The notes below the pieces were generated by a model. That model saw only the letters and a list, made by a program, of their open reading frames with translations. It had not been told where the DNA came from and searched no databases. From assembly GCF_003334815.1 (NCBI RefSeq), contig NZ_QOWO01000003.1: a stretch of 64,000 nucleotides of DNA. One strand, given 5' to 3'. Numbering within the stretch: position 1 is the stretch's first letter; each line of letters begins with the position of its first letter. This DNA comes from Escherichia coli. GTDB taxonomy: Bacteria; Pseudomonadota; Gammaproteobacteria; Enterobacterales; Enterobacteriaceae. Both the position numbers and the translations under genes were made by a program. Shown in pieces: positions 17,491 through 48,900 of the stretch.

Positions 17491-18804
17491 ATGAAAAATA
17501 TAAAATTCAGCCTGGCCTGGCAGATTCTGTTTGCTATGGTGCTGGGCATTCTCCTGGGAAGCTACCTGCACTACCATAGCGACAGCCGCGACTGGCTGGT
17601 CGTCAATTTGCTCTCTCCGGCGGGTGATATCTTCATCCATCTGATTAAAATGATTGTTGTGCCGATTGTGATCTCCACGCTGGTGGTGGGTATCGCGGGT
17701 GTTGGTGATGCCAAACAGCTCGGGCGTATTGGCGCGAAAACCATTATCTACTTCGAGGTGATCACCACCGTCGCCATCATTTTGGGGATCACTCTGGCGA
17801 ACGTCTTCCAGCCCGGTGCCGGGGTGGATATGTCGCAGTTGGCGACCGTCGATATCTCGAAATATCAGAGCACTACGGAAGCGGTACAAAGCAGTTCCCA
17901 CGGCATTATGGGCACGATTTTGTCGCTGGTGCCGACGAACATTGTGGCGTCGATGGCGAAAGGCGAAATGCTGCCGATCATCTTTTTCTCGGTGCTGTTT
18001 GGTCTGGGGCTTTCTTCCCTGCCCGCGACGCATCGTGAACCGCTGGTGACCGTGTTCCGCTCCATCTCTGAAACCATGTTTAAAGTGACTCACATGGTGA
18101 TGCGTTATGCACCGGTGGGTGTGTTTGCGCTGATTGCGGTGACGGTGGCTAACTTTGGTTTCTCGTCTCTGTGGCCACTGGCGAAACTGGTGCTGCTGGT
18201 GCATTTCGCCATTCTGTTCTTCGCGCTGGTAGTGCTGGGAATTGTGGCGCGCCTGTGCGGGTTAAGCGTCTGGATCCTGATTCGTATTCTGAAAGATGAG
18301 CTGATTCTGGCGTACTCCACTGCCAGCTCTGAAAGCGTGCTGCCGCGAATTATTGAGAAGATGGAAGCCTACGGAGCACCGGCGTCGATCACCAGTTTCG
18401 TGGTGCCGACCGGTTACTCTTTTAACCTTGATGGTTCGACGCTGTATCAAAGTATTGCCGCTATCTTCATCGCGCAGTTGTATGGCATTGACCTGTCCAT
18501 CTGGCAGGAAATCATTCTGGTGCTGACGCTGATGGTGACCTCGAAAGGGATTGCTGGCGTGCCTGGCGTGTCGTTTGTGGTGTTGCTGGCAACGCTGGGT
18601 AGCGTAGGTATTCCGCTGGAAGGTCTGGCGTTTATTGCTGGTGTTGACCGTATCCTCGACATGGCGCGTACTGCGCTGAACGTGGTGGGTAATGCGCTGG
18701 CGGTGCTGGTGATTGCCAAGTGGGAACACAAATTTGACCGTAAGAAAGCGCTGGCTTATGAGCGTGAAGTGCTGGGCAAATTTGATAAAACTGCGGATCA
18801 ATAA
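17491..18804 (+). CDS. gltP: Glutamate/aspartate:proton symporter
   Basis: ORF track 437 aa MKNIKFSLAWQILFAMVLG...; DAACS family. Confidence 0.95.
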   Translation: MKNIKFSLAWQILFAMVLGILLGSYLHYHSDSRDWLVVNLLSPAGDIFIHLIKMIVVPIVISTLVVGIAGVGDAKQLGRIGAKTIIYFEVITTVAIILGITLANVFQPGAGVDMSQLATVDISKYQSTTEAVQSSSHGIMGTILSLVPTNIVASMAKGEMLPIIFFSVLFGLGLSSLPATHREPLVTVFRSISETMFKVTHMVMRYAPVGVFALIAVTVANFGFSSLWPLAKLVLLVHFAILFFALVVLGIVARLCGLSVWILIRILKDELILAYSTASSESVLPRIIEKMEAYGAPASITSFVVPTGYSFNLDGSTLYQSIAAIFIAQLYGIDLSIWQEIILVLTLMVTSKGIAGVPGVSFVVLLATLGSVGIPLEGLAFIAGVDRILDMARTALNVVGNALAVLVIAKWEHKFDRKKALAYEREVLGKFDKTADQ

Positions 18805-18837
18805 TTGAAGATTGCCGGGGATATCCACCCGGCAATG

Positions 18838-19335
18838 TGTGAATGCCTGATGCGACGCTTGCCGCGTCTTATCAGGCCTACGCCAGACAGCGCAATAGCC
18901 TGATTTAGCGTGATTTTGTAGGTCGGATAAGGCGTTTATGCCGCATCCGACATCAACGCCTGATGCGACGCTTAACGCGTCTTATCAGGCCTACGCCAGA
19001 CAGCGCAATAGCCTGATTTAGCGTGATTTTGTAGGTCGGATAAGGCGTTTACGCCGCATCCGACATCAACGCCTGATGCGACGCTTGCCGCGTCTTATCA
19101 GGCCTACGCCAGACAGCGCAATAGCCTGATTTAGCGTGATTTTGTAGGTCGGATAAGGCGTTTATGCCGCATCCGACATCAACGCCTGATGCGACGCTTA
19201 ACGCGTCTTATCAGGCCTACGCCAGACAGCGCAATAGCCTGATTTAGCGTGATTTTGTAGGTCGGATAAGGCGTTTACGCCGCATCCGACATCAATGCCT
19301 GATGCGACGCTTGCCGCGTCTTATCAGGCCTATCT
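18838..19335. repeat. Tandem array of about five 113-bp units, each containing paired REP palindromes
   Basis: GCCTGATGCGACGCTT(G/A)... recurs at about 18845, 18958, 19071, 19184 and 19297 (period 113 bp); units near-identical with a few substitutions. Confidence 0.85.
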
Positions 19336-20024
19336 TAACCGTTGGTTAATTTTTCAAACTCTTCACACCCGGTATCAAACCCTTCCATACAGCTCAGGTT
19401 CAACCAGTGCAGCGCCTTTTGCTTGTTCTTCTCGATAAAACCTTCTTCACCGTTTAAGAACATCATTCCCGCCCAGTACTCGGAATAACCGGTTCGGGAA
19501 ATTGCAGAGCTGCGTTTGAAATACCAGGTTGCCTTGTCATCGTCGGCCTTAATGCCCACGCCGTTGGCGTAAATCAAACCAAGCAGCATTTGGGCATCGA
19601 CGGCAGAGTCGTTCTCCAGATCTTCCGAGGCGTTTTCTAACAGCGAAATTGCCTTTGGATAATCCGGTTTACCCGCTTGAGTATTTACCAGAATATGCGC
19701 CAGCGTTACTTCACCTTCTTTACTGCCCGCTTGCGCCGCTTTCTCTGCAAGAACTTTTGCTTGTGGATAGTCCAGACTGACCGGATTGGTGATTTTGATC
19801 TGCGCCAGCAGCGCGCAGGCATCAGCATCACCGCTGTCGGCGGCTTTCTGTGCCCAATATTCGGCTTTGCTCAAATCGCCGGAGCTAAACCAGCTGTCGG
19901 CAAGAAAATATTGTGCGCGTCGGTCCCCGGCCTCTGCTGCCTTTAAATACTGGCTGCCAGGCTCGGAGTCGTTGGCGTGGGCAAAGAATGTCAAAAACAA
20001 CATCAATGCGATAATTTTTTTCAT
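19335..20024 (-). CDS. yjcO: Sel1-repeat protein with signal peptide, unknown function
   Basis: ORF track 229 aa MKKIIALMLFLTFFAHA...; repeated Sel1/TPR-like units. Confidence 0.85.
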   Translation of the reverse strand: MKKIIALMLFLTFFAHANDSEPGSQYLKAAEAGDRRAQYFLADSWFSSGDLSKAEYWAQKAADSGDADACALLAQIKITNPVSLDYPQAKVLAEKAAQAGSKEGEVTLAHILVNTQAGKPDYPKAISLLENASEDLENDSAVDAQMLLGLIYANGVGIKADDDKATWYFKRSSAISRTGYSEYWAGMMFLNGEEGFIEKNKQKALHWLNLSCMEGFDTGCEEFEKLTNG

Positions 20025-20117: not shown

Positions 20118-22265
20118 TTACGCCAGTGCCGCTTCGCGCAGGCGAGTTTTCAACTTGTTGTACTCGTCAATCACGTACTGCTCGGCGGCGCGCTGATCGG
20201 CGATCGGCTCGACGCGAACGGCGCAGTATTTGTACTCCGGCGTTTTCGTAATCGGGCTTAAGTTTTCAGTAACCAGCTCGTTACAGGCACCAATCCACCA
20301 CTGGTAGGTCATGTAAATCGCCCCTTTGTTCGGACGATCGCTGACCTGCGCACGGGTGATAATTTTGCCTTTACGCGAGTGCACCCAAACCAATGCCTCA
20401 TCTTCAATACCCAGACGTTTGGCGTCTTCGGTATTGATTTGTGCGTAGCCAGGTTCATCAGCCAGCGCCGCCAGTGCCGCACAGTTACCGGTCATCGAAC
20501 GGCAAGAGTAGTGACCAACTTCACGCACCGTTGACAGTACCATCGGGTACTCGTCGGTGAGTTTGTCGATTGGCGCTACCCAGTCGCAGGTGAAGAACTG
20601 CGCCAGACCGTTCGGGGTATCAAACTTCTCTTTAAACAGATAAGAAGTCCCCTGATCGGCATCTGAAGTATCGCGGCAAGGCCACTGAATGAAGCCCAGT
20701 TCGCCCATTTTCTCGTAAGTCGCACCGTAGAAATCCGGGCACAGATGACGCAACTCATCCCAGATCTCCTGGGTGTTGTTGTAGTGCATCGGATAACCCA
20801 TACGGGTGGCGATTTCACTGATGATTTGCCAGTCCGTTTTCAGATCCCATTTCGGTTCAACCGCCTTGAAGAAACGCTGGAAGCCACGGTCAGCCGCAGT
20901 AAACACGCCTTCATGCTCGCCCCACGACGTTGACGGTAAAATAACATCCGCCGCCGACGCGGTTTTGGTCATAAAGATGTCCTGAACGATAACCAGTTCC
21001 AGATCTTCAAAGGCTTTACGTACTGCCGACAGCTCCGCGTCAGTTTGTAGCGGATCTTCGCCCATAATGTACGCGGCACGCACTTCGCCATGCGCTGCGC
21101 GGTGCGGCAGCTCGCTGATGCGATAGCCGGTATGCGCTGGCAGGCTTTCCACGCCCCAGGCTTTGGCGAATTTCTCGCGGTTAGCCGGATCTTTCACGTA
21201 CTGGTATCCCGGATACGTATCCGGCAGCGCGCCCATATCGCAGGCACCCTGAACGTTGTTCTGACCACGAACCGGGTTAACACCCGCATGCGGCTTACCG
21301 AGGTTACCGGTCAGCATCGCGAGGCTGGTCAGAGAACGCACGGTTTCCACGCCCTGGTAGAACTGGGTTACACCCATGCCCCACAGGATGGCGGCGCTTT
21401 TCGCCTGGGCATACATCCGTGCCGCCTGACGAATCTCACTGGCGCTGACGCCGGTGATATCTTCAACCGACTCCGGCGTGTAGCCTTCAACGATTTTACG
21501 ATACTCTTCAAAGCCTTCTGTACGTGAAGCGACGAACGCTTTGTCGTACAGATTTTCTTCAATAATGACATGGCCCATCGCATTCAACAGCGCGATGTTC
21601 GAGCCGTTTTTCAGTGCAATGTGCATGTCAGCAATGCGCGCGGTTTCAATTTTGCGCGGATCGCAGACGATAATTTTCGCCCCGTTACGTTTAGCGTTAA
21701 TTACGTGATTCGCCACGATTGGGTGGGAATCCGCCGGGTTGTACCCGAAAACGAACACTAAATCGGTATTATCAATTTCGTTAATAGCATTGCTCATTGC
21801 GCCATTACCGACCGATTGGTGCAGACCTGCAACCGATGGGCCGTGTCAGACACGAGCGCAGCAGTCAACGTTATTGGTACCAATAACGGCGCGCGCAAAT
21901 TTTTGCATTACATAGTTGGTTTCGTTACCCGTACCACGCGAGGAGCCGGTCGTCTGGATGGCATCCGGACCGTACTTCTCTTTGATGGCGCTCAGGCGCT
22001 CGGCAACGTAATTCAGTGCCTCATCCCAGGAAACAGGTTCGAGTTTGCCGCCACGCTGGCGACGGATCATGGGGGTTTTCAGGCGCGGGGTCAGGATCTG
22101 GGTATCGTTAATGAAGTCCCAGCCATAATAACCCTTCAGACACAGGGTACCCTGGTTGGTTTTCCCCTGCGCTGCCTCCGCCCGGACGATTTTGCCGTTA
22201 TCGACGACCAGGTTGATTTTGCAACCTGATGCGCAATAGGGGCAAACCGTGACGACTTTTTTCAT
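20118..22265 (-). CDS. fdhF: Formate dehydrogenase H (selenocysteine-containing molybdoenzyme of formate hydrogenlyase)
   Basis: Two in-frame ORF-track pieces (21846..22265 ending ...DCCARV, and 20118..21797) joined by a TGA at 21846..21848 read as selenocysteine; total 715 codons. Confidence 0.95.
21800..21848 (-). other. Selenocysteine UGA codon plus downstream SECIS stem-loop
   Basis: mRNA sequence UGA CAC GGC CCA UCG GUU GCA GGU CUG CAC CAA UCG GUC GGU AAU matches the fdhF SECIS as I remember it. Confidence 0.85.
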
Positions 22266-40727: not shown

Positions 40728-40811
<84 letters not shown>

Positions 40812-45253: not shown

Positions 45254-46104
45254 TCAGATAAAGTGCTTACGCAACCGTTGAGAGAGGAAATCCAGCAGGC
45301 TGACCGTGACGATGATAAGCACCATCAGGGCGCAGGTTTGTTGGAACTGGAAACCGCGAATCGCTTCCCACAGGGTGACGCCGATCCCGCCTGCGCCGAC
45401 CATGCCGACGACGGTCGCCGAGCGGACGTTGGATTCGAAGCGATAGAGGGAGTAGGAGATCAGCAGTGGCATCACCTGTGGCAGCACGCCGTAGAGGATC
45501 TCTTCGAGCTTGTTGGCACCGGTGGCGCGAATGCCTTCCACCGGGCCGGGTTCAATCGCTTCCACCGCTTCGGAAAGCAGCTTGGAGAGCACGCCGGTGG
45601 TGTGGATAAACAGCGCCAGCACGCCAGCACGCCAGCGAACGGGCCGAGGCCGACGGCGACCACGAACAGCATGGCGAAGACCATTTCGTTAATGGCGCGG
45701 CAGGCGTCCATCAGGCGGCGAACGGGCTGGTAAACCCACCACGGCACCAGGTTTTCGGCGCTCATCAGGCCAAAGGGGATGGAGAGAACCACCGCCAGCG
45801 CGGTGCCCCAGACGGCGATTTGCAGCGTGACGGCCATTTCGGTGAGGTAATCCTGCCACTGGCTGAAATCGGGCGGGAAGAAGTCGGCGGCGAACGTCGC
45901 CATGTTGCCGCCGTCTTTGATCAGCGTAAGCGGGGCCATTTCCGCGCCCTGCCACGAGACGACCAACACGGCGAGTACAACGGCCCAGCTCAGAAGCGAG
46001 AACCAGCTGCGCTTGGGTGGGGCGATGGTGATGGTTTGCATGTTTGGCTCCGGTCTGTAGGCCGGATAAGGTGCTTGCACCGCATCCGGCATCAACGCCT
46101 GCAC
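45254..46104 (-). pseudogene. phnE: PhnE, phosphonate ABC transporter permease, frameshifted at an 8-bp repeat (K-12 cryptic allele)
   Basis: ORF track splits it into 45472..46104 and 45254..45622 in different frames; three tandem GCCAGCAC-type copies at about 45614..45637. Confidence 0.9.
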
Positions 46105-46143
46105 ATTGTCGGATGCGACGCCGGGGCGTCTTATCCGACCTAC
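46056..46143. repeat. REP/BIME element in the phnE-phnD spacer
   Basis: Inverted pair TGTAGGCCGGATAAGGTGCTTGCACCGCATCCGGCA and GTCGGATGCGACGCCGGGGCGTCTTATCCGACCTAC. Confidence 0.8.
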
Positions 46144-48108: not shown

Positions 48109-48552
48109 TTATTGCGTTGGTTGTTGTTTGACGACATTAATCATCCACGGTACGCCAAATTTATCGGTGACTTTGCCAAAGCCATGCGCCCAGAAAGTTT
48201 CCTGCCAGGCCATTTCGATTTTTCCGTTAGCGGCAAGATTGTCAAACCAGCGTTTTCCTTCTTCGACCTGTTGCGAATCGAGCACCAGCGTAAAGCCGGA
48301 GTAGCTGGCTTTTCCTGACGGCATGGCATCGCTCATCATGATGTCGCTTCCGGCAATGCGCACATTGGCGTGGGCGATGGCGGTATCGGGAAATTGCATT
48401 CCGGAAGGGCAGTTCTCGGCGCTGTCCTGCGCTGATTTTGGCATTTCGCCGAAGCTGATTTTATAGAGCAGTTCCGCGCCCAACGTACGTTGATAATAGG
48501 CAATCGCGTCGGAACAGTTACCGGCAAAAGAGAGGTAGGGACTTAACGGCAT
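48109..48552 (-). CDS. phnB: PhnB, glyoxalase/bleomycin-resistance-fold protein
   Basis: ORF track 147 aa. Confidence 0.9.
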   Translation of the reverse strand: MPLSPYLSFAGNCSDAIAYYQRTLGAELLYKISFGEMPKSAQDSAENCPSGMQFPDTAIAHANVRIAGSDIMMSDAMPSGKASYSGFTLVLDSQQVEEGKRWFDNLAANGKIEMAWQETFWAHGFGKVTDKFGVPWMINVVKQQPTQ

Positions 48553-48616
48553 GATGGTGACCTCAGTTAAGAGAAGCCAGTTAAGTGTAGTTCGAAATTT
48601 ATACAGATGAGAGGCG

Positions 48617-48900
<284 letters not shown>

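Follow-up and report, generated by a model that had tools for sequence, protein, structure and literature searches.

What occupies the space between the 3' ends of the convergent genes gltP and yjcO of Escherichia coli, how did it come to be repeated, and does the number of repeats matter to the cell? In the window, by which we mean the whole stretch of 64,000 nucleotides that was analysed, this space had been predicted, from the letters of the sequence, to hold a tandem array built from REP palindromes. We conclude, with a probability of about 0.9, that the array is a BIME-2-type cluster of REPs (palindromic units) filling the convergent gltP-yjcO intergenic space. It is already known and is an ordinary member of a known family: REP and BIME arrays, their make-up of Y and Z2 palindromes, their copy-number polymorphism and their targeting by IS1397 have been described since the 1990s, the gltP-yjcO BIME itself has already been used in published biochemistry, and the polymorphism reported below is known BIME-2 behaviour. 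Mildly useful by-products of the analysis are the one-unit difference between MG1655 and W3110, the locus-specificity and age of the 36-nt linker within the repeated unit, and an account of variants that resequencing studies keep reporting from this interval.

Architecture of the array

The whole array falls inside the interval bounded by the two genes' stop codons. The features of the region are as follows, in order along the window.

17491-18804, plus strand: gltP coding sequence (glutamate/aspartate:proton symporter), from the ORF list and the annotation of matching RefSeq records; stop codon TAA at 18802-18804; the 3' UTR enters the array
18811-18836, plus strand: non-REP hairpin, AUUGCCGGG-loop-CCCGGCAAU, 6 nt past the gltP stop codon; fold -17 kcal/mol, z -4.6; without a U-tract
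18845-19333, no strand: whole array, of BIME-2 type; nine REP palindromes (five Z2, four Y) of alternating orientation; 4.3 copies of a 113-bp unit
18845-18881, minus strand: Z2 REP no. 1, loop TTGCC; GTAG foot on the minus strand; hairpin -21.3 (plus) and -21.8 (minus) kcal/mol
18882-18917, no strand: linker no. 1, 36 nt, tail-to-tail, GCCAGACAGCGCAATAGCCTGATTTAGCGTGATTTT; four CT dinucleotides on the minus strand
18918-18951, plus strand: Y REP no. 1, loop TTTATG; GTAG foot on the plus strand; -17 kcal/mol
18952-18957, no strand: head-to-head spacer ATCAAC between Y and Z2 stems; recurs at 19065-19070 and 19178-19183, and as ATCAAT at 19291-19296
18958-18994, minus strand: Z2 REP no. 2, loop TTAAC; -21.6 kcal/mol
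18995-19030, no strand: linker no. 2
19031-19064, plus strand: Y REP no. 2, loop TTTACG; -18.8 kcal/mol
19071-19107, minus strand: Z2 REP no. 3, loop TTGCC; opens the second copy of a 226-bp block
19108-19143, no strand: linker no. 3
19144-19177, plus strand: Y REP no. 3, loop TTTATG
19184-19220, minus strand: Z2 REP no. 4, loop TTAAC
19221-19256, no strand: linker no. 4
19257-19290, plus strand: Y REP no. 4, loop TTTACG
19297-19333, minus strand: Z2 REP no. 5, loop TTGCC, the terminal partial unit; foot CTAT, not CTAC
19335-20024, minus strand: yjcO coding sequence (Sel1-repeat protein), from the ORF list and the annotation of matching RefSeq records; convergent with gltP; stop codon TAA, read on the reverse complement of 19335-19337

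Each 113-bp unit runs from a 37-nt Z REP (GCCTGATGCGACGC-loop-GCGTCTTATCAGGCCTAC) through the 36-nt linker (GCCAGACAGCGCAATAGCCTGATTTAGCGTGATTTT) to an inverted Y REP and closes with the 6-nt spacer ATCAAC. The Y REP is 34 nt long (GTAGGTCGGATAAGGCG-loop-GCCGCATCCGAC) and lies in the orientation opposite to that of the Z REP, with the REP tails (their GTAG/CTAC feet) facing one another across the linker and the heads facing one another across the spacer. A pair of REP palindromes in every unit had been predicted, and each unit indeed carries a Z2 with an inverted Y. The GTAG foot (CTAC on the other strand) is present in eight of the nine palindromes, the exception being the last Z2. This terminal palindrome is parted from the yjcO stop codon by a gap of one base, and its stem ends at 19329, 5 nt from that codon.

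The original prediction had staked itself on a 113-bp periodicity, and the periodicity was found by two routes. Tandem Repeats Finder places one array at 18845-19332 and gives it a period of 113, 4.3 copies, 96% matches without indels and a score of 927, and a direct-repeat search gives a start-to-start spacing of 113, seen four times. The predicted count of about five copies did not hold in full: there are four complete units and a fifth of which only the Z2 palindrome is present, giving five Z2 REPs, four Y REPs and four linkers. Aligned in register, the copies vary only at unit positions 3 (T/C), 20-21 (GC/AA) and 98 (T/C). Positions 20-21 distinguish TTGCC from TTAAC in the Z2 loop and position 98 distinguishes TTTATG from TTTACG in the Y loop, and both pairs alternate along the array as had been described. 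The two-unit blocks 18845-19067 and 19071-19293 have no mismatches in 223 nt and are thus the trace of a last event that duplicated 226 bp; the newest step in the amplification of the array is an exact two-unit duplication, in line with the earlier suggestion that a block of two units had been amplified. The array stands far above chance, and the same array is present in many independent assemblies.

Folding and coding potential

On either strand all nine palindromes (34-37 nt) fold as hairpins, their energies lying at -17 to -22 kcal/mol and their z values between -4 and -8, and the 266-270 nt at either end of the intergenic transcript reach fold z values of -9 to -10. The alternating variants sit on top of the hairpins: those of the Z2 REPs are loop bases, while the T variant of the Y REP loses one pair at the top of the stem, at a cost of about 2 kcal/mol. 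The 36-nt linker folds as a weak hairpin (-10.3 and -11.5 kcal/mol, z about -2.5). An inverted-repeat finder at default stringency reported no pairs in the array because the REP stems are interrupted, and folding was used in its place. A consensus scan for intrinsic terminators returned none on either strand of 18700-19450. The hairpin at 18811-18836 (GCCGGG...CCCGGC) may be a 3'-end structure belonging to gltP itself. Every allele examined retains it, the single-REP alleles too, with variation in its loop and at the boundary of loop and stem. A coding function of the array is rejected, as the ORF list holds no ORF of at least 40 aa inside 18845-19290.

Assignment to the BIME-2 type

Ton-Hoang et al. 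(2012; PMC3333891) describe a REP as an imperfect palindrome of about 30-40 nt that forms a stable hairpin and carries a conserved GTAG at its 5' foot, and a BIME-2 as z2 and y REPs in multiple tandem copies, in which REP and inverted REP are parted by a short linker; linkers differ between loci and are well conserved inside one locus, and the tandem copy number varies between strains. The gltP-yjcO array has nine extragenic palindromes of 34-37 nt with hairpins of -17 to -22 kcal/mol, GTAG in eight of them, Z-type and Y-type cores on opposite strands in inverted alternation, a 6-nt head-to-head ATCAAC in the place of the short linker (S), and tandem copies, 4.3 of 113 bp here and anything between 0 and about 9 units elsewhere in the species. 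With the BIME-2 elements of Gilson, Bachellier, Hofnung and co-workers, as defined in PMC3333891, it shares the alternation of y and z2, the short head spacer, the tandem copies, the location at extragenic 3' ends, a unit conserved within the locus and a strain-variable copy number, and the gltP-yjcO BIME itself is cited there. It differs in having a 36-nt tail-to-tail linker specific to its own locus.

The original prediction had also stated that the array was "not a single BIME". This was wrong, because a BIME-2 is by definition made of z2 and y REPs in multiple tandem copies (PMC3333891); tandem Z2/Y pairs are what the published definition describes. BIME-1, given in that paper as a single y-z1 pair with a long L linker bearing an IHF site, is excluded by the tandem repetition, the Z2-type REPs and the 6-nt head-to-head spacer. 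The tail-to-tail flank of a BIME-2 is one of three named motifs, s, l and r; should the 36-nt linker match none of them, the array would strictly be called an "atypical BIME".

The Z and Y sequences of the array are near-identical to the Z2 and Y sequences of a second array in the same window, REP325. The Z REPs are probably of type Z2 rather than Z1, a distinction drawn in part from the consensus sequences of the two types. REP325 is described in the literature as pairs of Z2 and Y palindromic units. The Rfam model RF02564 (naRNA4), which was built on the Y/Z2 pair of REP325 and has a gathering score of 59.5 bits, matches the gltP array at its four Y-spacer-Z2 pairs, on the plus strand, with 79, 77.1, 71.4 and 71.4 bits. 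Since it also matches the Y/Z pairs at 8315-8385 and 46060-46140 and REP325 itself, the model marks a repeat family and not a specific sRNA gene.

Copy number in E. coli and related species

A comparison of copy number across E. coli had been called for by the original prediction. It was made on 5,426 complete genomes, all of which match the gltP-yjcO locus, and yielded alleles that range between one REP and about 9 units, in 113-bp increments. The following alleles illustrate the series.

UTAK-10: intergenic space 77 bp; one Z, no Y, no linker; 0 units
WP7-S18-ESBL-09: 78 bp; one Z, no Y, no linker; 0 units
3502: 191 bp; two Z, one Y, one linker; 1 unit
KFu019: 303 bp; three Z, two Y, two linkers; 2 units
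ECZP248: 416 bp; four Z, three Y, three linkers; 3 units
Window and W3110: 530 bp; five Z, four Y, four linkers; 4 units
MG1655 (NC_000913.3): 641 bp; six Z, five Y, five linkers; 5 units
O6:K2:H1 (B2 strain): 827 bp; seven Y REPs

The number of units at gltP-yjcO changes stepwise by one unit between strains, K-12 sub-strains included. Of 59 evenly sampled chromosomes, 25 (about 42%) have a single Z REP only, so the multi-unit array is dispensable. The unit itself is also subject to variation. The linker of the O157:H7 allele is 14 nt shorter, and O6:K2:H1, ST131, AVS0151 and UM146 share a variant array with 1, 4 or 7 Y REPs, in which the first Z REP is cut to GCCTGA, the linker reads GATGTAG for GATTTAG and the terminal Z REP is without its 3' arm; UM146, with truncated Z-type REPs, retains only a Y REP intact.

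The 36-nt linker serves as a tag for the locus. A sensitive search located it in 2,811 of the 5,426 genomes, each of which has it at 1 to 9 sites (median 4). K-12 records hold it four times, which is the linker number of a 4-unit gltP-yjcO array and therefore leaves no copy outside this locus. When one genome per species was scanned for the exact pattern, about 100,000 species in all, the linker was found in Escherichia sp. E1V33, with 5 units, and in E. whittamii, with 2, each time between gltP and yjcO; the sole other match in that scan was a 240-bp contig of a myxobacterial assembly. Confined as it is to this locus and present there in two other Escherichia species, the linker indicates that the unit is old and locus-specific and that it expands and contracts in place. 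The myxobacterial contig (Pyxidicoccus caerfyrddinensis, NZ_JAAIYA010000177.1; 240 bp, coverage 0.53) shares 98.8% identity with the gltP-yjcO array of E. coli and is almost certainly E. coli contamination.

K-12 sub-strains and resequencing variants

MG1655 has 5 units against 4 in W3110 and in the window, a difference of one 113-bp unit. The 5-unit allele is found in many independent assemblies of the MG1655 lineage and the 4-unit allele in W3110 and several further K-12-like records. The extra unit of MG1655 is a hybrid that combines the Z2 loop TTAAC with the Y loop TTTATG, and to judge from its sequence it would be the expected product if alternating units had undergone one unequal exchange with an offset of one unit.

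The last Y REP of the MG1655 reference (NC_000913.3, about 4,296,370-4,296,385, corresponding to 19274-19280 of the window) reads GTTTACCGCATCC, with 2 bp missing, at a site where GTTTACGCCGCATCC stands in the window and in many assemblies of the MG1655 lineage. Resequenced MG1655 stocks have been reported with "+CG at 4,296,380" at 100% frequency and with a fractional C-to-T change at 4,296,060. The 2-bp gap in the reference corresponds to the "+CG at 4,296,380", which makes it either a reference error or a stock difference within the repeat. In one resequencing study, variants in the gltP/yjcO interval were discussed as possibly adaptive; mis-mapping within a repeat is the more economical reading. 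The array explains the recurrent gltP/yjcO "mutations" of resequencing studies, both the +CG at 4,296,380 and the fractional C-to-T change at 4,296,060.

Over 12 kb the window shows 2 mismatches to W3110, one of them a single base inside gltP, at 18383, which is unlike both MG1655 and W3110, and the second at about 20268. These differences from the K-12 references make the window K-12-like and not identical to K-12. Strain 300709 matches the window at 100% over 18300-19900.

Growth of the array and alternative explanations

Going by published work on the REP family, units may be gained and lost through unequal homologous exchange or replication slippage between units that are 97-100% identical, and/or through cleavage and rejoining by TnpA(REP) (RAYT, YafM), the REP-associated tyrosine transposase. 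A rival account, which concerns the amplification step only, makes this enzyme the main driver: single-strand cleavage at the CT dinucleotides of the linker and at the inverted REPs would be followed by strand transfer, and homologous recombination or slippage would play a minor part. We consider this rather doubtful. According to PMC3333891, TnpA(REP) takes the gltP-yjcO BIME of MG1655 (oligo B319) as a substrate and cuts it in vitro at four sites in the linker, the CT dinucleotide is indispensable for cleavage, and further REPs can be put together by the enzyme through recombination. Exactly four CT dinucleotides are present on the linker's minus strand, and their agreement with the four published cleavage sites is only suggestive; the GTAG foot, required for binding, is present in all REPs but the last, with its CTAT. 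The alleles themselves tell a different story, as all the differences observed between them are whole 113-bp units, and the MG1655 hybrid of Z2-TTAAC and Y-TTTATG is what one unequal crossover between units of 97-100% identity would be expected to give. Clean whole-unit differences and the hybrid unit would favour ordinary homology-driven exchange over TnpA(REP). The gltP/yjcO interval is also one junction of an ampC amplicon in one evolved strain, which lends anecdotal support to recombination at the array; the paper in question is silent on REPs.

The array as a whole could instead be a neutral minisatellite, that is, selfish or hitch-hiking repeat DNA tolerated between two convergent 3' ends, and this is a possible if somewhat unlikely reading. 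Unit number ranges from 0 to about 9 with no obvious constraint, a single REP is present in 25 of the 59 sampled chromosomes, and two laboratory lineages of K-12 stand one unit apart without a known phenotype. Strict neutrality sits less well with the presence of at least one REP in every allele examined (in UM146 the intact Y only, the Z-type being truncated), with the retention of the unit at the same locus in other Escherichia species, with variable positions that occur only in loops while the stems are kept, and with a two-sided change in the stem of the Y REP, GTCGG...CCGAC against GCCGG...CCGGC in REP325. At the other extreme, we find it improbable that unit number is a fast-changing dial and not neutral, with the four TnpA(REP) sites of the linker making it an unusually active RAYT substrate in vivo and unit number setting the survival of gltP/yjcO mRNA or the absorption of supercoils; the ground for such a reading is the one-unit change within the laboratory history of K-12 (MG1655 5, W3110 4) and the species range of 0 to 9. 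The array might also be a gene for naRNA4-like RNAs of two hairpins, Y and Z2, that bind HU and condense the chromosome, a role proposed for the REP325 RNAs (Qian et al. 2015, PMC4550694), and the four matches to the Rfam naRNA4 model above its gathering score, on the gltP-sense strand, fit this. It is nevertheless a very improbable reading, given that the model matches every Y-Z head-to-head pair about 7-17 nt apart (8315-8385, 46060-46140, REP325), that REP325/naRNA4 shows no measurable nucleoid compaction and acts locally in its own operon according to a 2026 preprint, and that the array is missing in many strains. Tandem repeats of 500-650 bp are open to short-read mis-assembly, and the MG1655 reference does carry a 2-bp error or variant in its last Y REP, yet an assembly or sequencing artefact has next to no chance of accounting for an array found with the same unit, at the same locus, in thousands of complete genomes and two other Escherichia species; recurrence in independent assemblies refutes it. 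A CRISPR-like array is dismissed just as firmly, as the "spacers" are identical copies and not unique sequences.

Possible roles of the BIME-2-type array

For a BIME-2 cluster at this position the likely roles, judged from what is known of its relatives, would be generic for REPs: a decay barrier at the 3' end, a partial terminator, a gyrase target, and a target for recombination and IS1397. At the level of RNA, both convergent transcripts are predicted to end in a row of hairpins of -17 to -22 kcal/mol, and by analogy REP hairpins may stop 3'-to-5' exonucleases and bring about a partial termination that depends in part on Rho. A 2026 preprint on REPs (bioRxiv 10.64898/2026.03.23.713779) presents them as terminators and decay barriers, also between convergent genes, and the REP325 hairpins as a partly Rho-dependent terminator and decay barrier; it reports that where REPs lie between convergent genes the two genes tend to be more highly expressed, and that genome-wide mRNA half-lives are not measurably longer with terminal REPs. 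It makes no mention of gltP. What the original prediction said in general about stabilising mRNA, about terminating transcription between convergent genes and about recombination agrees with the published REP literature at the level of the family. The natural series of 0 to 9 units could be used to relate the number of REP hairpins to 3'-end formation between convergent genes.

At the level of DNA, gyrase prefers BIME-2 and cleaves mostly in y REPs, independently of transcription (PMC6379681), and BIME-2 elements have been proposed as topological barriers. By analogy, the Y REPs of this array would be preferred sites of DNA gyrase, and for this reason the array may absorb positive supercoils of convergent transcription. 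Since the stem of the last REP lies 5 nt after the yjcO stop codon, the array may in addition lower the translation of yjcO. Liang, Rudd and Deutscher (2015) reportedly found that a REP close to a stop codon lowers translation. The 2026 preprint merely alludes to such an effect.

IS1397 inserts specifically within E. coli REP sequences (PMC1525189). In E. coli S51 (NZ_CP015995.1), an IS3-like element of the IS1397 family occupies 597-1945 of the retrieved locus, in the loop of the first gltP-yjcO Z REP, with TGGT on both sides.

Related repeats and other elements in the window

The second BIME-2 array of the window, REP325/naRNA4 by sequence, lies at 48616-48895 and has a 100-bp unit in 2.8 copies with six REPs. 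It adjoins an ORF at 48109-48552 on the minus strand; the REP325 of MG1655 sits between yjdN and yjdM and has 5.8 copies, so that the window is 3 units shorter. REP325 as described by Qian et al. (2015) and in the preprint of Harris et al. (2026) shares with the gltP array the tandem Z2 and Y REPs, the matches to naRNA4, the hairpins in a 3' UTR and a copy number unlike that of MG1655. The two differ in several respects. The unit of REP325 measures 100 bp, with 13 nt between the heads and about 20 nt between the tails of its REPs, and the setting is a tandem operon, not a pair of convergent genes; its Z2 loop is 1 nt shorter, and the base of its Y stem has a C-G pair where the gltP array has T-A.

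A wider parallel is offered by the REPIN/RAYT systems (Bertels and Rainey 2011, PMC3116915; Nunvar et al. 2010, PMC2817692), which likewise combine inverted REP doublets with a domesticated tyrosine transposase of the IS200/IS605 type; the RAYT gene of E. coli, yafM, has Y and Z2 REPs on its flanks. Whereas REPINs spread as doublets to many loci, the gltP array is one doublet plus linker that was amplified in place.

Further REP pairs or single REPs occur in the window at 8315-8385, 40728-40810, 46060-46140 and 54529-54555, two of them matching naRNA4, and the Z-like stems at 40728 and 46108 have the GTCGG...CCGAC base of the gltP-array Y REPs. Rfam matches above gathering score were also obtained for SECIS_2 at 21799-21853 (minus strand), just upstream of the ORF at 20118-21797 in a region annotated as fdhF in matching records, for the sRNA sraL at 937-1077 (minus strand) and for the sRNA STnc630 at 54558-54723 (plus strand), all of which are expected features of the region.
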